Sequence record: MT711527.1
Length of the DNA stretch: 41,273 nt
Reading direction: 5' to 3' (one strand)
From: Escherichia phage vB_EcoS_fTaEco01
The position numbers and the translations under genes were made by a program. Of the stretch, positions 19,768 through 28,162 are shown piece after piece. Within the stretch, counting starts at the first letter, position 1, and every line of letters starts with the position of its first letter. The notes below the pieces were generated by a model, which ran no database searches, was not told where the DNA came from, and saw nothing but the letters and a program-made list of their open reading frames with translations.

Positions 19768-22722
19768 ATGTCAAGCGGATGTGGTGACGTTTTAAGCCTG
19801 GCGGATTTACAGACCGCCAAGAAGCACCAGATTTTTGAAGCCGAGGTTATCACGGGTAAATCCGGCGGAGTAGCCGGGGGCGCAGATATTGATTACGCGA
19901 CAAACCAGGTTACAGGGCAGACCCAGAAGACACTACCTGCCGTGTTGCGTGACGCTGGTTTTAAACTGGCAGATTTTGATTTCACGTCAGGCGGTACACT
20001 ATCCGCTAACGACCGAAACACCGCAGTTTTGTGGCCGTCGTCCTCTGGTGGCGATGGGGATTGGTACCATTGGTTGGGCGCTCTGCCAAAAACTATCCCG
20101 GCGTCATCTTCTCCGCAGTCCACCGGTGGCGTGGCAGATGGGGCGTGGCAGCCTGTCGGGTCGGTCATACTGCGGCAGCAAATATCTGATGTAAACGGTG
20201 CAATTCTGTACCCAGATTTACATGTGGCGCGATGGAAGGACGAATACGACCCGCGCGCATGGGGCGCCGTGGGCGACGGCGTAACTGATGATACTCAATC
20301 TATTTTTAATGTATTAGCAGCTTCCCACAACAATTGGATTATAGACGGCAGGGGCTTGACTTATAAAGTTTCCCAATTACCTGACATTAGTAAATTTAAG
20401 AATGCTGCATTCGTTTACGAGCGCGTAGCTGGGCAACCGCTTACTTATGTAGCTGATGGCTTCTTTAACAGCTCACTAACTAAGGTGACGGATACCCCGT
20501 TCTACAACGCATGGACGCAGGATAAAACTTTCGTCTACGACAATGTTATTTACGCTCCCTTTATGGCCGGCGAACGACATGGCGTTCAAAACTTACATGT
20601 AGCTTGGGTTCGCTCTGGTGACGACGGGCAGACTTGGTCAATGCCTGAGTGGTTGACCCCAATCCATGCTGACTATAATGCTAGGGTTTCCGCGGACAGA
20701 GTTAACTACCACTGCATGAGCATGGGTACGTGCGGCAACCGATTATATGCAGTTATAGAAACCCGCTACTTATCTAATATGCGGATGAAGAAGGCAGAAC
20801 TTTGGTCACGCCCAATGCCGTATTTTAGACACCCAACCGGCGGAATAACTATTAGTTCTGGTTCCACTACTGCTACCATTGTTATAGAAAATCACGGCCT
20901 AAAAGCAGGAGATGCGGTTAACTTCTCTAATACATCGGCAACTGGCGTATCGGGTAATATGACGGTTGCGTCTATAATTAACCGAAATACGTTCACTGTT
21001 ACGCTCTCAAGCCCGGCGAGTTCCACCATAAACAATGCGGGTGTTACCTGGAACTTCGCAACGCGATTCTGGGACAGCCCGTGGGAAATTACCGAATTGC
21101 CTGGGGTAGCATACTCCACTAACGCTGATTTGTGTGTCACGGAGACACATAGTTTTGCGGTTATAGACGATGTTAACTACACTATCGCTGTCGGCTATCA
21201 CAACGGCGATGTGTCCCCTAGGCGTCTCGGTGTCTTGTATTTTAGTAACGTGTATGACAATCCTGGCGTATTCGTTCGTCGCACTGTCGCTCAGGCATAC
21301 GCTGATAACGCTTCTGAGCCGTGCGTGAAAAGTTATGGTGGTGTGTTATACCTTACCACACGCGGCACATTACCTACTTCCCCTGGCTCTACACTGGCGA
21401 TGAGCACCGATTCTGGGCAAAACTGGAGCTACTTGCGATTTCCGAACAATGTACATCACTCCAATCTTCCGTTCGCTAAAGTAGGTGACTATCTCTACAT
21501 CTTTGGTACAGAACGTGCCTTTGGTGAGTGGGAAGGTGGTGAGCAGGACAGCCGCTATGAAGGTTCGTATCCGAGGACCTTTATGTGCAAAGTTAATGTG
21601 TCGTCCTGGCCTTCATCTTTAGATGATGTTCAGTGGTTTAATATTACCGACCAAATATACCAGGGTCATATCGTTAACTCTGCTGTCGGCGTCGGCTCGG
21701 TCTGTGTTAAAGATGGCTGGTTGTACTATATCTTTGGTGGGGAAGACTTCTTCTCTCCCTGGAGCATAGGGGATAACAGTGCGAAGTTATGGTACAAACA
21801 TGATGGGCATCCGGCTGACTTATATAGCTACCGGATAAAGATTGAAGACCACCCGTATGTATCCCGTGATTTCAAATACGGAGCAACTCCTAACCGTACA
21901 CTACCTGTCGCCATGGGGGTAGATGGTGTACGTCATGTAGGGGCACCTTTAACATTTGATAATGATGTAAGCGTGTACTCACTGCATGTAACGGGGCTGG
22001 AATACGATGGTACACAACAGTCCGCCGTGCGTGCACAGTTTGATGGTGATTACGGGCTGATTTCAAAAACAGTCCCCACTAAAAACCCATCGGGTCAAAG
22101 ACTGATAGTTAGCGGTGGTGATGGTGCATCCAGTTCCGATGGTGCGTTGCTGCAACTGTACGGGGCAAACCATGCAACGCCTAACAGGGCTATTATGTAT
22201 GCGTCAGGAGGCTTCTACTCATACAACAATTTTCTTCCTTACTTAGACTCGCAAGTGTCTTTAGGTTCGGCAGGTAATAGGTGGACTACGGTGTACGCGA
22301 CCACCGGTACGATAAATACGTCTGATGGTACACTTAAGACGAATAAAGAGGAAATTGAGGGACAACTCCTTACCGCATGGGAAGATATACATGTAATATC
22401 TTTTAAGTGGCTTGAAAGCCTAGCAATCAAGGGTGACACTGCAAGGATACACTTCGGTGTGATAGCCCAAGATGTGCGAGACATCTTGGTCAACCATGGG
22501 CTTATGGAGAAAGATTCTACCGATTGTAAATATGCTTTCTTGTGCTACGACCCAATTGAAGCTGCGTATGATATTGATGAAGATGGCCAGACTGTACAAG
22601 TATCCCCTCCCGGCGGCAGATGGGGGGTTAGGGCGGACCAGATGTTCTTCATAGAGATTGCCTATCAGCGTAAGAAGATGCGCGAGTTCGAGAAGAGGCT
22701 GGCAGCACTAGAAGATAAATAA
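19768..22722 (+). CDS. tailspike / tail fibre with sialidase-like Asp-box (BNR) repeats and C-terminal intramolecular chaperone (peptidase S74-like) domain
   Basis: 984 aa; Asp-boxes SGDDGQTW and STDSGQNW; C-terminal region with TSDGTLK...IHFGVIAQDV... resembles self-cleaving chaperone domains of endosialidases and T5 L-shaped fibre; AAAGAGG RBS. Confidence 0.6.
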   Translation: MSSGCGDVLSLADLQTAKKHQIFEAEVITGKSGGVAGGADIDYATNQVTGQTQKTLPAVLRDAGFKLADFDFTSGGTLSANDRNTAVLWPSSSGGDGDWYHWLGALPKTIPASSSPQSTGGVADGAWQPVGSVILRQQISDVNGAILYPDLHVARWKDEYDPRAWGAVGDGVTDDTQSIFNVLAASHNNWIIDGRGLTYKVSQLPDISKFKNAAFVYERVAGQPLTYVADGFFNSSLTKVTDTPFYNAWTQDKTFVYDNVIYAPFMAGERHGVQNLHVAWVRSGDDGQTWSMPEWLTPIHADYNARVSADRVNYHCMSMGTCGNRLYAVIETRYLSNMRMKKAELWSRPMPYFRHPTGGITISSGSTTATIVIENHGLKAGDAVNFSNTSATGVSGNMTVASIINRNTFTVTLSSPASSTINNAGVTWNFATRFWDSPWEITELPGVAYSTNADLCVTETHSFAVIDDVNYTIAVGYHNGDVSPRRLGVLYFSNVYDNPGVFVRRTVAQAYADNASEPCVKSYGGVLYLTTRGTLPTSPGSTLAMSTDSGQNWSYLRFPNNVHHSNLPFAKVGDYLYIFGTERAFGEWEGGEQDSRYEGSYPRTFMCKVNVSSWPSSLDDVQWFNITDQIYQGHIVNSAVGVGSVCVKDGWLYYIFGGEDFFSPWSIGDNSAKLWYKHDGHPADLYSYRIKIEDHPYVSRDFKYGATPNRTLPVAMGVDGVRHVGAPLTFDNDVSVYSLHVTGLEYDGTQQSAVRAQFDGDYGLISKTVPTKNPSGQRLIVSGGDGASSSDGALLQLYGANHATPNRAIMYASGGFYSYNNFLPYLDSQVSLGSAGNRWTTVYATTGTINTSDGTLKTNKEEIEGQLLTAWEDIHVISFKWLESLAIKGDTARIHFGVIAQDVRDILVNHGLMEKDSTDCKYAFLCYDPIEAAYDIDEDGQTVQVSPPGGRWGVRADQMFFIEIAYQRKKMREFEKRLAALEDK

Positions 22723-22888: not shown

Positions 22889-24309
22889 TTCTTACCTCGT
22901 CTCTTCATGTAATTAAGCAACTCTTCCTGGACCGATTTCTTCTCGTCAGTACGCGAGGCAACAACCTCGTCCAGCGTGTCTTTAGCAACGATGTGATAGA
23001 GGAACACTGGTCGCTCATGGCCCGCCTGCTTCTGGCGCACCGGGCCTATACGCTCGACAACCTGCAAATAGTGCTCAAGGTTCCAGCCTTGCGAAATAAA
23101 CGCCAGATGATGTCCGCCGTCCTGTAAATTCAAACCATGGCCGGCTGACGCGGGGTGAACGCACAAAATCTCGATTTCACCCCGATTCCACGCTTCCATC
23201 TGCTTATTACCTTTCGCACCTTTGGCAAACGCCTGCGCCTGTGGGAATCGCTTAAGGATGCGCTCCAGTTCGTGCTTGAACTGATAAGCCACAAGTAACG
23301 GTGCGCCCTGTAGCTCCTCAACAATCGACTCAAGCGCGTCCAGTTTCGTATCGTGTACTTTCTCCCAGTCTTTGGTTGCCTCACCGTCTGGCCCCGACAC
23401 ATATACGGCACCGGAGGCAATCTGCAAACACTTTGACGTCTTCGCCGCCGCGTTAGCCGCTTCAACTTCTCCGCTCTCCAGTTCCGCGAATAACTTCTCC
23501 TCCATATCTAGGTACGCCTGACGTGCCTTCTTCGGCAGGTCGATTTCAACCGGCACTATAATAGGTGCTTCACACCCAAACCACTCAGCGGCGTCAATAG
23601 TGAGACTAATGTCCTTCATCTTCTGGTGGATCTCATTATCTGCACCAGGACGCGCATGATACTCCCGCGCCATCGCCGACTTACCTTTCTGTACCGAGTT
23701 AAACCATCGGTCGGTGAATGCCGTATATGAGGACCCCAGGCGCTCGCCGGCGTCGATAAACCAGTTCTGACCCCACAGGTCCTTGAGGCCGTTTGGTGAG
23801 GGCGTGCCGGTAAGGTTTATAAAACGCTTAACCTTTCCAAACGCCACCTTACTGAGCGCCTTTGCCCGCTTGCTACCACCTGAACGGCTGCGGAATGATT
23901 TCAGCTTCGTGCTTTCGTCGGCGACGATAACGGTAAAAGGCCAGTCGTCTTTGCCGTAGTAGTCAATCAGCCATTCGATAACTTCGTAGTTTGTACACAC
24001 CACGTTAGCGTCTGATTCCAGCGCCGCGATGCGGCGCTTCTCTGAACCTGTCGCGTCTACGACACGCAGACATGGGAAATTCCATTTCTCTTGCTCTGCC
24101 GGCCATGTGCCGGACGCAACACGTAAAGGAGCCAGAATTAACACGCGGTCGTCGTCCGTAAGTTGCCCGTTGCGGAACAGGCGGTTTAAAGTCCACAGGA
24201 CGCTGCCAGTCTTCCCGGCGCCCATGCTCGCCCAAATATTACAGCGATGGTGCTGCAACATGAACGAGGTCATGAGCTTCTGGTATTCGCGCCTTTGAAA
24301 CTTACTCAT
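22885..24309 (-). CDS. superfamily-2 DNA helicase (SNF2/DEAD-like)
   Basis: Walker A SMGAGKTG, motif II VADEST, C-terminal helicase-domain-like region. Confidence 0.7.
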   Translation of the reverse strand: MSKFQRREYQKLMTSFMLQHHRCNIWASMGAGKTGSVLWTLNRLFRNGQLTDDDRVLILAPLRVASGTWPAEQEKWNFPCLRVVDATGSEKRRIAALESDANVVCTNYEVIEWLIDYYGKDDWPFTVIVADESTKLKSFRSRSGGSKRAKALSKVAFGKVKRFINLTGTPSPNGLKDLWGQNWFIDAGERLGSSYTAFTDRWFNSVQKGKSAMAREYHARPGADNEIHQKMKDISLTIDAAEWFGCEAPIIVPVEIDLPKKARQAYLDMEEKLFAELESGEVEAANAAAKTSKCLQIASGAVYVSGPDGEATKDWEKVHDTKLDALESIVEELQGAPLLVAYQFKHELERILKRFPQAQAFAKGAKGNKQMEAWNRGEIEILCVHPASAGHGLNLQDGGHHLAFISQGWNLEHYLQVVERIGPVRQKQAGHERPVFLYHIVAKDTLDEVVASRTDEKKSVQEELLNYMKRRGKK

Positions 24310-25126
24310 TTACGGCCCCCATAAACGCCTTTATAAATTCGGCGGCTACTTGCGGGACGATGGCATTGCCGTAACCGCGCAATCGTCCCACTCTTGCGGG
24401 TATCCCATTAGCCAGCGGGAATGCGCCGGGTTCAACCGGCCGGAACTTTCCATCACGGCATCCGAGCCAGTCAGCATCTGACCAGAAGCCGTGGTGCGGG
24501 TTGGTTGACTCGCTTTCAATCCCTGCTCTGTTGAGTAGTCCAGCCTGTCGAATGTTCTGTCCCTCCCGTCCGTGCGAATCACTGTCTCTCCGCTCCCTCT
24601 GAAGTCGTTCGCACACGGTGTTGGCCAGTTGCTGCGCTCCGAAGAACAATCGATTCCTTTTGTGCGGTGCGCCGACGCTACAAGCTGGGAGTACGGCAAA
24701 CCCGACGGCGTAGTCTTCTCTTTCCAGGTGAGTTTGTAAATCGCACATCCACGATTTTGCAATTGCTGCCGCAACCTGCTCCCCAAAGATAACTGGAGGG
24801 CGGCACTCGCTGATGAGGTCGAGGAACACAGGTGCGAGGTGTCTCTGGTCGAACTGTCCGAGTTGCTTTCCTGCCGTGCTAAACGGTTGGCAAGGCGGGC
24901 TTCCCGTCCAGAGAGGCGCATCTTCCGGAACTCCCGCAAGTCTGAGCGCGAGAGGCCAGCCGCCGATACCAGCGAAAAAATGACACTGGGTGAACCCGTC
25001 AAGGTCTTCTGGCTTAACTTCGGTAATGCTTCTTTCATCTACAACTCCAAAAGGTATGTGACCATGTTTTATTAATTCACGCAGCCACGCGGCTGCGCCT
25101 TTATCCCATTCGTTGTAATAGTTCAT
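24302..25126 (-). CDS. DNA (cytosine-5)-methyltransferase, short form
   Basis: Motif I FAGIGG, motif [11 protein letters not shown], motif VIII-like HKRNRLF, C-terminal GN; only 274 aa. Confidence 0.7.
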
Positions 25127-25314
25127 TTTGCCACCAGAACTAACTCTTTACGCCCGAACGCCGTGACGTTACCCGTTACATCTTCGATAACCAGTTTACC
25201 GTTCGACTCGACGAACACCGTATCAACGGCAACAGGCTGGCGTGTCTTAACGTTGAAAATCATGTCACCCGGTACGATGTCACGTGCTGGTTTACGGTCA
25301 TATTCGTGTTTCAT
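25123..25314 (-). CDS. hypothetical protein
   Basis: 63-aa ORF with AAGGA RBS, immediately downstream of a minus-strand promoter. Confidence 0.4.
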   Translation of the reverse strand: MKHEYDRKPARDIVPGDMIFNVKTRQPVAVDTVFVESNGKLVIEDVTGNVTAFGRKELVLVAK

Positions 25315-25344
25315 TTCTCAATTCCTTATATTGTTGGTGTGTGA

Positions 25345-25629
25345 TTAACTATAATAGCTCGCTATTAGGTCGTCAACCTGTTTAAACGAACCAACGATAA
25401 AAACATTTGCACCGCGTTTACGCATCCGCTCGTGCTCACGTATCTGGTGCGGGTCTGGCTTCGTGTTTTCGTCTTTCTTAACCTCGACGAACCATATGAC
25501 GCCGCCAGGGAGAATTACCAGCAGGTCGGGAGCGCCGGAGCGCCCCTCGTAGGAGAGCTTACGAACGAGGCCGCCGATGGCCTCGAATCGCTCTTTTGCG
25601 TATTTCTGTATTTTGCCTTCCGGTGTCAT
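25345..25629 (-). CDS. VRR-NUC domain nuclease
   Basis: PD-(D/E)xK-type core GAPDLLVIL...VIWFVEVKK; ATG 25629 preferred over TTG 25644. Confidence 0.6.
   Translation of the reverse strand: MTPEGKIQKYAKERFEAIGGLVRKLSYEGRSGAPDLLVILPGGVIWFVEVKKDENTKPDPHQIREHERMRKRGANVFIVGSFKQVDDLIASYYS
25348..25376 (-). promoter_or_regulatory. internal promoter (TTGACG-17 nt-TATAGT)
   Basis: Reverse complement TTGACG-ACCTAATAGCGAGCTAT-TATAGT; lies in the 3' end of the VRR-NUC gene. Confidence 0.45.
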
Positions 25630-25778
25630 GAGCGCGGAATCCAAGTAAGGAAAGCCCCGCCTAGAACGGCAACGCCAACAAACTTAAAGAACAGGCCGTA
25701 ACAGAACATCGCGGCTATTCCCGCACCGAGTAACAGCGCGAGCATGGTTACTATCGTCCAAAATACAAACATTGTCAT
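25626..25778 (-). CDS. hypothetical small membrane protein (50 aa)
   Basis: GAGGGG RBS; two hydrophobic helices; stop overlaps VRR-NUC ATG (ATGA). Confidence 0.3.
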   Translation of the reverse strand: MTMFVFWTIVTMLALLLGAGIAAMFCYGLFFKFVGVAVLGGAFLTWIPRS

Positions 25779-25860: not shown

Positions 25861-25992
25861 TCATTCCAGCACCCACAGATAAATTGCGATGAACATGCCC
25901 AATATGGCAACCATCATGCCGTATTGACCCTCGTGACAGTAGACACCGGCAGCAAATCCCGCCAGTACCGCGATAATCAGTTTACTTGGCAT
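25861..25992 (-). CDS. hypothetical small membrane protein (43 aa)
   Basis: Hydrophobic ORF starting 11 nt inside the 3' end of the DNA polymerase gene; weak RBS. Confidence 0.2.
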   Translation of the reverse strand: MPSKLIIAVLAGFAAGVYCHEGQYGMMVAILGMFIAIYLWVLE

Positions 25993-28162
25993 AACGCTTC
26001 ATCTCCGCGCCTTCTGCTACAAGAGGGAACCCCTCGGCCCACTCTGGTAATTCGCACATCAATCGTTCCAGTTCTGCGACATTGTATTCTGGTAAATCTG
26101 GTGTCTCGCAGATAATCTCATCGTGAACATGAAGCACAATCGGGTAGCCGTTTGCTTCGACGTTCAGCAGTGCATTAGCCAACAAATCACGGCACAGCGC
26201 CTGAGTGCAGTTTTCCACCAGTTTACCAGAGTAGGTGTACTGGAAGCCCCACTGACGGGTTAACTGGTTTTCGCCCTGGTACTTGATGCGCACGTTGGTA
26301 GACACCTTTCCATCTTCGTCTGTCTCTTTCGACACGCTCAACCCGACGCCAGGGTATGACATAACTCGACCAGACGGCAACGTCATACGCAACCACCAAC
26401 CGGCGACTTTGTTGCCGTTGTTGTCCGTTTCTACGTTGCGCGAAAACTTAACTCCCCGCGGCCCTGCGGTGAACTCTTTGCCCGGATTGCGGATAGCTGC
26501 CATAGCTGCGTCTTCAATATCCCGCCAGAAAGCTACTGTTTCCGGGTGTGACTCACGCCACATACGCTTGATAGCGTCGCAGGTACGCCACACTTTCTTA
26601 TCAAGAATATAAGATGGTCGGTCATCATTTTCACCTGGACGTGGTGGTCGCTTGGCTTCCTGAATACGCGCCCACTCATATCCACGTGCGGTAGCAGCCC
26701 AGATGTGGTCGGGGAAAGTCCCGTCCATTGTTTTTGCCATATCAACAAGGTCAAGGCCGAGGTTCTTGGCGAACTGTACGAATGCGCCGACACCACCCGC
26801 GTAGCCAAGTCCAAGTTCGCATGCCTTACCAATCTGGCGTAAGTCTTTACGTTCTTTCTTAATGTAATCCGGCTCCATGCCGAACATCTTGCCTGCGGTT
26901 ACGCAGTAAATATCCAGCCCGGCACGGAACGTATCAAGCGCGGTTTCTTCGCCAGCCAGCCACGCCAAACCGCGGCCTTCAACGTTCGAGTAGTCGGCGA
27001 CGACAAACTTATGTCCAGCTTCCGGGATAATGCAGCTGCGAACCGTAGATGCCGTTAGCTTGGCTACATCAAAACGGCGATGTGCTCGGCCCTTAAGTAA
27101 TGCTGAAATACCTTTATCCAGTTCATCATCGTGATAGTACCCACGCGCCAGGTTCTGCGGCTGGAAGCCTTTACCCGCAAATCGTAACGTACGTTTAGCT
27201 CCACCATACTGGATGCAACCGCGACGGCGGTCGTCAGACGAGCGGCCTAACAGCAGCGGGTTATATTTCGTTGACGCAGTGGATGCCGCCCCTAGGCGCA
27301 TTTCTATAATCGTGCGAGCGTCGTCCGGTAAATCATCGTCAGCAAGCAGGTCGTTAAGCGTAGACTTCTGCGCGTTGTGGATGCGATGCGCAGGCGCCAG
27401 TTCACGCAGAATCGGCAGGAAGTCCTTTCCGGTAAGCGAGCCGCCGTATTTACGTCGGGCTTCTTCCTGTAACTGCGCTTTGTGTTTCTCAACGGCTTCA
27501 ATCGCGGCTTCCGCCAGCGCAACGTCGACCTTAAACCCGCGGTCGTTAATTAACTGGTCCAGTTCCAGTACACGGTCTTCGAACTCGGAGTTACCCCAAC
27601 GCGGCAACTTATGGAACACTTCACGCATCGCGGTGATGTCGCTAACGGCGTACTTGATGAACAGCGCCCACTCATCCGGGTGCGTTTCAGCAGTGTAGCG
27701 GCGAATTTTGTAGTTCTTCGGCGTCGGTTTAGAGAAACGCTGAATAAGCGCTTTGCCGCGTTTGTCTTTCGCGTTGTCTGCAGACACGCCAAGCACTTCG
27801 CACAATGCGTCGAGTGAACCCGGCAGCGCGTGACGAAACGCCCAAATCATCGTATCAATGGTGTTGCTTACGGGAATATCAAAACCCCAGCAGTGCTTCA
27901 TGATGAGTCTGTCGAACATTGAGCCGTTGTGCCACACCATCTTAATACGGCTGTTTGGTTTCACCAGACGGCGTAACGCGCGGTGCAAATCACCCGGCAT
28001 GTCGCTGCCGTTGGTGCAATCCCATACCTGCACAGGCTCGTCGTCAAAAGCATATGTGCAGATTAGAACTTCGGTGGTTGGATGTTCGGCGTAAGCGTAG
28101 GAGCCGACTTTCTTCAAATCGGCTTCGGAGAATGTTTCAAAGTCTAAGAACAGGTAACTCAT
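25982..28162 (-). CDS. DNA polymerase, family A, with 3'-5' exonuclease domain
   Basis: Exo I FLDFET; motif A VVADYSNVEGR; motif B RQIGKACELGLGYAGG; motif C LHVHDEI. Confidence 0.85.
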   Translation of the reverse strand: MSYLFLDFETFSEADLKKVGSYAYAEHPTTEVLICTYAFDDEPVQVWDCTNGSDMPGDLHRALRRLVKPNSRIKMVWHNGSMFDRLIMKHCWGFDIPVSNTIDTMIWAFRHALPGSLDALCEVLGVSADNAKDKRGKALIQRFSKPTPKNYKIRRYTAETHPDEWALFIKYAVSDITAMREVFHKLPRWGNSEFEDRVLELDQLINDRGFKVDVALAEAAIEAVEKHKAQLQEEARRKYGGSLTGKDFLPILRELAPAHRIHNAQKSTLNDLLADDDLPDDARTIIEMRLGAASTASTKYNPLLLGRSSDDRRRGCIQYGGAKRTLRFAGKGFQPQNLARGYYHDDELDKGISALLKGRAHRRFDVAKLTASTVRSCIIPEAGHKFVVADYSNVEGRGLAWLAGEETALDTFRAGLDIYCVTAGKMFGMEPDYIKKERKDLRQIGKACELGLGYAGGVGAFVQFAKNLGLDLVDMAKTMDGTFPDHIWAATARGYEWARIQEAKRPPRPGENDDRPSYILDKKVWRTCDAIKRMWRESHPETVAFWRDIEDAAMAAIRNPGKEFTAGPRGVKFSRNVETDNNGNKVAGWWLRMTLPSGRVMSYPGVGLSVSKETDEDGKVSTNVRIKYQGENQLTRQWGFQYTYSGKLVENCTQALCRDLLANALLNVEANGYPIVLHVHDEIICETPDLPEYNVAELERLMCELPEWAEGFPLVAEGAEMKRYAK

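Follow-up and report, generated by a model that had tools for sequence, protein, structure and literature searches.

Escherichia phage vB_EcoS_fTaEco01 carries, on the minus strand of sequence record MT711527.1, a gene at 24302-25126 that a first-pass annotation had described as an unusually short C5-cytosine methyltransferase. Here, the window refers to the whole 41,273 nt stretch of that record, which is essentially the complete genome of a K1G-like siphophage (Kagunavirus, Guernseyvirinae). Within this gene (gene A, frame A) lies a second open reading frame (ORF) on the same strand (gene B, frame B), and both frames are protein-coding and under selection, a point on which four independent measures agree. 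We consider it probable that the locus specifies a two-polypeptide C5-cytosine methyltransferase from two fully overlapping same-strand genes, with gene A giving the alpha subunit and gene B the beta subunit. This kind of enzyme is known from a single characterised example, M.EcoHK31I, and the family to which the locus belongs is very large and apparently undescribed. Both ORFs are already in GenBank; literature searches found no published analysis of their overlap.

24302..25126, minus strand: gene A (alpha, large subunit), an ORF of 274 amino acids (aa), C5-cytosine methyltransferase with motifs I, IV, VI, VIII and X
24346..25038, minus strand: gene B (proposed beta, small subunit), a 230-aa ORF in the +1 frame, wholly inside gene A and covering 84% of it

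The first measure is the absence of stop codons. Synonymous codons were permuted in 81 genes, with 100 trials for the window. When A was permuted, frame B was expected to carry 3.2 stops per gene (for the window, 3.9 and never less than one in any trial), while permutation of B gave 7.7 stops per gene in frame A. The number observed is zero in both frames for 81 of 81 genes, against 13.75 per gene in the third frame. Some 10 codons ahead of motif I (A codon ~30-45), frame B begins to be held open, with 0.07 stops per gene compared to 1.31 expected; farther upstream, its stops are as frequent as chance predicts. Frame A is likewise held open in the variable region, which extends from motif VIII to the conserved C-terminus, with no stop in 79 of 79 genes where 134 were expected.

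Conservation by codon position, followed over 62 non-redundant genes, shows where each frame is constrained, the wobble position of A being the second position of B and the first position of A being the wobble of B. Over A residues 1-108, identity at the A wobble is 0.33-0.49, as in normal single coding, and it rises to 0.60-0.66 over residues 109-156. From 169 to 216 the first position of A is the least conserved (0.33-0.47) and amino-acid identity is 0.20-0.35, which is the pattern of coding in B only, while over residues 217-252 all three positions are conserved (0.67-0.95), as in double coding. Past the stop codon of B, the A wobble returns to 0.32-0.44. The signature along the gene thus runs from A-only to dual, B-only, dual and again A-only, and a reciprocal alignment based on B agrees with it. 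Similarity is also specific to the frame. In an all-against-all blastp of the variable region from 60 genes, 859 of 1770 pairs were significant in frame B, compared with 114 in frame A and 176 in the third frame, and frame B outscored frame A in 490 pairs to 1. From this pattern, alpha would be translated straight through its linker without amino-acid constraint, and beta would be translated from around A codon 30-45, by way of an unconstrained N-terminal extension, into a constrained core.

These data bear directly on a rival account of the locus, namely a compact, self-sufficient 274-aa orphan methyltransferase whose nested ORF is an untranslated by-product of frame A conservation. Five canonical motifs stand in frame A, the Pfam threshold is passed and most annotators call frame A only, all of which would suit this account. 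However, one would expect a by-product frame to behave like the third frame, with stops building up and similarity fading; frame B has instead remained free of stops in 81 of 81 genes, holds the sole conserved information in the variable region and constrains the wobble position of A. Conservation of frame B as a by-product is ruled out by stop depletion, codon-phase switching and frame-specific similarity, and we regard the self-sufficient enzyme as extremely improbable. The first-pass annotation, which missed the nested ORF at 24346..25038 (minus strand), had taken this view of the protein; it is not supported, as the variable region is unselected in frame A and the +1 frame holds a conserved protein with modules and a motif IX-like element.

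What stands from that annotation is the methyltransferase itself. Frame A matches Pfam PF00145 with 61.8 bits (cut-off 22), although over residues 70-165 alone, and PHROG 363 ('DNA methyltransferase') over its full length; its TIGR00675 score of 42.5 is below the cut-off of 100.65. Relatives have gene A annotated as 'DNA cytosine methyltransferase'. The following elements were located in the alpha chain:

24959..24979, minus strand: motif I, loop binding S-adenosylmethionine (AdoMet), FFAGIGG, residues 50-56
24878..24904, minus strand: motif IV with the catalytic Cys79, GSPPCQPFS, residues 75-83
24641..24784, minus strand: motifs VI-VIII, with GEQV at residues 115-118 and motif VIII at residues 153-162, from alignments and hhalign to E. 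coli Dcm
24497..24631, minus strand: linker, residues 166-210, rich in Gly, Arg, Ala and Ser, in the canonical position of the target-recognition domain
24350..24496, minus strand: conserved C-terminal block, residues 211-259, with many invariant residues; motif X lies at 24344-24373

All five motifs are invariant or nearly so across the alignments, with F50, F51, A52, G53 and G55 of motif I and G75, S76, P78, C79, Q80, P81 and S83 of motif IV among the invariant residues. With hhalign, motif IV is matched to PCQPFS of Dcm, and motifs IV-VIII align to that protein. Motif VI reads GEQV, with Q for the N of ENV, motif VIII reads HKRNR, with H for the Q of QxRxR, and motif X (residues 252-261) reads YGNAIV against the consensus GNxV. 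In C5-methyltransferases, motifs I-VIII and X form the large domain, while the variable region and motif IX form the small domain, which makes all sequence-specific contacts to DNA (PMC3404938). Frame A does not hold this second set: it has no recognisable motif IX, and from motif VIII to motif X there are just 90 residues, so that the earlier remark about little room for a target-recognition domain is borne out for the protein's own frame.

Candidates for the missing parts are found in frame B. Gene B is matched by PHROG 1008 and 31772. In phages K1G and fKuEco01 its annotation, which goes back to 2010, reads 'putative Mte8-like protein', and RefSeq lists it as another 'DNA methyltransferase'. 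Its elements are as follows:

25036..25048, minus strand: candidate start of gene B, with GGAG at 25048-25045, a 6-nt spacer ending in an in-frame TAG, and ATG at 25038-25036
24814..25038, minus strand: N-terminal extension, residues 1-75, without amino-acid constraint but with the frame kept open
24664..24813, minus strand: conserved helix and beta-hairpin, residues 76-125
24511..24627, minus strand: WPTP cassette module, residues 138-176, single here ('WPTPxAxD...'), in a region that evolves in frame B
24388..24435, minus strand: motif IX-like element, residues 202-217, the most conserved stretch of the locus, with a column identity of 0.95

The B proteins of close relatives all begin with MKEA or MKEV, and most of the distant ones start at either of two conserved Met positions six codons apart. 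In the extension, identity at the second codon position of B is 0.37-0.51 and AlphaFold2 (AF2) assigns a predicted local distance difference test (pLDDT) value below 50. The segment that follows, which overlaps the stretch encoding alpha motifs VI-VIII, is predicted with a pLDDT of 88-94 as a helix (76-95) and two strands (101-109 and 115-123), and L81, L85, L89, G97, W105, K106, P111, A121, S122 and R125 are invariant or nearly so. Residues 179-220 end in the motif IX-like element, where P204, H206, S207, R208, W209, L210, M211, G212, P214 and W217 are invariant in 62 diverse sequences and a helix is predicted at 204-210. The canonical motif IX consensus consists of L-x-P, five residues and L-M-G-[F/Y]-P, and the element in beta has the same spacing (L-x-P-x5-L-M-G-[FY]-P).

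With the parts distributed in this way, a working enzyme can be proposed. Alpha would give the large catalytic domain, that is, AdoMet binding by motif I, Cys79 of motif IV and motifs VI, VIII and X, with only an unconstrained linker at the position of the target-recognition domain. Beta, made from the ATG at 25038 behind its own GGAG, would supply what alpha lacks: its helix and hairpin probably dock on alpha, its variable WPTP module would read the DNA target, and its motif IX-like helix would be added to the assembly. Together, the two chains would form the cleft between large and small domains of a normal C5-methyltransferase. Methylation of the replicating phage DNA at a single sequence would then shield it from host restriction, and relatives with 2-7 modules would protect several sequences. 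Target recognition is placed on beta because the variable region is a feature of the beta frame here, and the whole is read as an alpha/beta C5-methyltransferase because the locus has the architecture of M.EcoHK31I.

The same order of parts could also be joined in a single polypeptide by two programmed frameshifts, with A read through motif VIII, a +1 shift into B, and a -1 shift back to A for motif X. Read this way, the locus gives the canonical order of motifs I-VIII, target-recognition domain, IX and X, and about 10 residues lie between GYP of the motif IX-like element and GN of motif X. However, frame B is constrained and confidently structured well before motif VIII (B residues 76-125) and is kept open from around A codon 30-45, while frame A is free of stops through the linker and adds constraint over B in residues 217-252. 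None of these, neither the upstream constraint in B, nor the open linker of A, nor the dual coding of 217-252, would be needed by a single shifted chain, and we judge such a product to be very unlikely.

The two-frame arrangement is widespread. A tblastn search with the C-terminal 99 residues of the nested frame retrieved 242 phage records; where the phage infects another host, such as Pseudomonas, Rhodobacter, Burkholderia, Klebsiella or Xanthomonas, identity is 34-59%. Six records were examined (Rhodobacter, Pseudomonas, Bordetella and E. coli phages, a T4-like Krischvirus and a cyanophage), and the match was always +1 to the catalytic motifs. Among diverse metagenomic viral loci with a GC content of 53-68%, 80 of 80 have motifs I, IV, VI, VIII and X in frame A and a 'TWK' block, at least one 'WPTP' block and 'HSRWLMG' in frame B; the third frame offers short ORFs only. 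Altogether, both frames are open in 86 of 86 diverse relatives and the modules are +1 to the catalytic motifs in every locus. Relatives with the catalytic motifs and WPTP or motif IX in the same frame were sought, and none was present in these 86 loci. A profile search with B reached 21,477 clusters (50% identity), including 8,530 with E <= 1e-30, and no Pfam domain was present in any. The overlap spans ~230-390 codons (stop to stop, fused ORFs excluded) and is conserved over thousands of clusters from double-stranded DNA (dsDNA) phages and prophages.

Several of these loci have features of their own. In Cylindrospermopsis phage Cr-LKS3 (positions 1021-1758 of locus L089), the beta frame is annotated as 'methyltransferase' and the alpha frame with the catalytic motifs is unannotated, so that the locus appears to be an in-frame case because annotators called B and not A. 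The homologue in the lambdoid prophage of E. coli Ec1117 (NZ_CP126602.1; L091, 2863-4032) is given by the Prokaryotic Genome Annotation Pipeline (PGAP) as two 'incomplete, partial' pseudogene pieces. Both of its frames are intact, with 389 aa in A, and the adjoining MT-A70 gene is marked as frameshifted; it seems that the long variable linker breaks the annotation model. In the metagenomic sequence IMGVR_UViG_3300007085_000007 (L020, 2459-3937), the beta frame reads on, uninterrupted by a stop, into an MT-A70 domain (N6-adenine methyltransferase, DPPW) to form an ORF of 492 codons, which could be a real beta/MT-A70 fusion or merely a downstream gene in the same frame. At two further loci (L023, 2483-3832, and L024, 2483-3844), the beta frame continues into a C-terminal HNH or endonuclease VII-like domain (CAICG...HVDHCH...GLLCRGCN), giving ORFs of ~450 codons.

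The variable part of frame B is built from cassettes. Each module starts with W[PAQ][TS]P and has a median length of 39 aa, and whole modules are inserted or exchanged even among close Kagunavirus and Jerseyvirus relatives. The modules fall into ~65 sequence clusters and number 1-3 in close relatives, 2-7 in distant ones and one in the window. A tandem 15-nt repeat had been considered behind the 5-aa length steps of B homologues and was rejected, the differences being whole cassette modules. This also accounts for the size of the enzyme. At 274 aa, gene A is indeed at the short end of a family with a median of 314 aa; its shortness, which had been taken as unusual for the methyltransferase, reflects one module in the nested gene as opposed to 2-7 in relatives. 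In other words, the gene looks short because the window has the minimal, single-module form (274/230 aa).

A number of observations weigh against the two-subunit reading. The association of alpha with beta and the activity of the pair, like the need for both chains, the specificity of the modules, the protective role and the target site, are things that we infer, and the translation of beta is read from the selection pattern. The assignment of motif IX is based on a pattern of 13 residues. Searches of Pfam, NCBIfam and PDB sequences with B or its profile gave no family and no structure, the PDB sequences giving no match to the B profile, and hhalign of that profile with E. coli Dcm gave no alignment. 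The AF2 model of beta alone is confident at 76-125 only, and a Foldseek search with it against the PDB returned nothing below E = 0.35. For alpha, in spite of its strongly conserved Rossmann-type methyltransferase motifs, AF2 with an alignment of 63 sequences gave an unusable model with a pLDDT of 43; too little diversity in the alignment may be the cause, or a fold that needs beta to be complete. The single module of the window belongs to the commonest module class, so that it may act as a structural core and not in specificity. The likeness to M.EcoHK31I is one of architecture, taken from the published descriptions. In that enzyme, the target-recognition domain is placed on alpha and not on beta (PMC2836561, PMC3404938).

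In a rival reading, beta is real and selected but is no methyltransferase subunit, and would act instead in DNA binding, regulation or anti-defence, with alpha working alone and its C-terminal block contacting DNA. What the selection data establish is just that B is coding; neither profiles nor folds connect it to any methyltransferase, and variable cassette-like modules would also suit a protein in an arms race. Yet in 85 of 85 loci retrieved by B-based searches, B is nested in the methyltransferase gene. The stretch of B that is conserved most is spaced like motif IX, the motif that alpha lacks, and the variable modules lie on the exact nucleotides that encode the target-recognition domain of one-chain enzymes. 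The experimentally proven M.EcoHK31I has the same layout. We consider a beta outside the methyltransferase to be unlikely, and the two-subunit enzyme remains the reading that we prefer.

We extend this reading, tentatively and with less than even confidence, to a very large family of C5-methyltransferases of phages and prophages, numbering over 20,000 clusters (50% identity). Throughout it, a shufflable array of one to seven cassettes and motif IX would be encoded in the other frame as a separate subunit, while the catalytic chain reads those nucleotides as a meaningless but stop-free linker. If this is true, few of the long same-strand overlaps known in dsDNA viruses would match this one in size and conservation, cassette swapping offers a route to multi-site anti-restriction, and the target-recognition domain of M.EcoHK31I has perhaps been assigned to the wrong chain. 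The apparent anomaly of the gene would be explained as well, the enzyme looking too small as its recognition part hides in the second reading frame. Annotation pipelines mishandle the family, mostly calling one frame, sometimes the wrong one (as in Cr-LKS3), or giving pseudogenes (as with PGAP). If the modules set specificity, they would provide a natural modular system for retargeting cytosine methylation and a marker of the host restriction systems that therapeutic K1 and Salmonella phages are able to escape. Research on overlapping genes gains from the locus a deep and well-sampled case in which the boundaries between single and double constraint can be read from codon-position conservation.

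The gene sits within the minus-strand replication operon of a lytic phage. Over 24000-25700, the sequence matches Escherichia phage vB_EcoS_fKuEco01 at 99% identity; for K1G, K1H and K1ind1-3 the figure is 90-95%. The ATG of gene A overlaps the stop codon of a 63-aa ORF, and the start of the SNF2-type helicase downstream overlaps the final codons of gene A. Upstream are a family A DNA polymerase, an Enc34-type single-stranded DNA-binding protein and a PD-(D/E)XK nuclease. Of the two neighbours named in the first-pass annotation, the helicase in the replication operon was found as described; the VRR-NUC nuclease corresponds to a small upstream ORF (25345-25644, 99 aa) that takes its label, VRR_NUC or Holliday junction resolvase, from the annotation of near-identical phages and has no match at 1e-3 in a Pfam scan. 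The lack of a partner restriction enzyme was also noted correctly, as the annotation of the 99%-identical fKuEco01 genome contains no restriction endonuclease. Copies beside a restriction enzyme were sought on plasmids and E. coli chromosomes, and only prophage and phage-plasmid contexts turned up. Self-protection of phage DNA would be a plausible role, fitting both the position among replication genes and the lack of an annotated restriction partner.

Some features of the surroundings were recorded in passing. The fKuEco01 record has 40,825 bases compared to 41,273 in the window, and the coordinates near the methyltransferase gene are offset by just 1, so the extra ~450 bases lie elsewhere (an indel or a repeated end). 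The replication operon ends at a terminator-like hairpin (22746-22727) and is convergent with a plus-strand gene at 19768-22722 for a tailspike of 984 aa, which the fKuEco01 annotation lists as an endosialidase. Several tiny minus-strand ORFs of 30-53 aa (25982-26115, 25861-25992), some with overlapping stop and start codons, fill the space from the DNA polymerase to the VRR-NUC-like gene; they are hypothetical in the annotation of relatives.

The closest known parallel to the proposed enzyme is M.EcoHK31I of E. coli HK31, a natural heterodimeric C5-methyltransferase with the target YGGCCR (Lee, Kam and Shaw, 1995; PMC2836561, PMC3404938). Its alpha chain has motifs I-VIII and X, its beta chain has motif IX and both are needed for activity (PMC2836561, PMC3404938), with the beta gene wholly within the alpha gene in another frame (PMC2836561). 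The likeness covers the nested same-strand beta ORF (here 24346-25038 inside 24302-25126, at +1), an alpha chain with the series of motifs I-VIII and X but without IX, and the N-terminal part of beta, which matters in M.EcoHK31I for association with alpha and is compatible with the helix and hairpin seen here. Unlike the phage locus, an orphan in a lytic phage with replication genes as neighbours, M.EcoHK31I is described as part of a restriction-modification system; and where its target-recognition domain is assigned to alpha, the variable region here is selected in the beta frame only. M.AquI is likewise a C5-methyltransferase of two polypeptides (PMC3404938). However, its chain is cut within the variable region into an alpha with motifs I-VIII and a beta with IX-X, encoded by consecutive genes, whereas the fTaEco01 locus has a nested beta gene and keeps motif X in alpha, past the beta stop.

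As for the overlap, long overprinted genes on one strand are known from viruses and resemble this locus in that a single stretch of nucleotides, read in two frames, gives two proteins and is doubly constrained in places, but their products are mostly functionally unrelated, whereas here they are apparently parts of one enzyme. The cassettes recall M.SPRI, M.Phi3TI, M.Rho11sI and M.H2I of Bacillus phages, orphan methyltransferases with tandem, interchangeable target-recognising domains by which one enzyme protects several sites (see the references given in PMC8936443). In the corresponding place, relatives of the fTaEco01 locus have one to seven cassette modules, which are of many types. The Bacillus phage enzymes are single polypeptides in one frame, while the modules here, which are putative target-recognition domains, are in the other frame and on the other polypeptide, and the window's own gene has only one of them.

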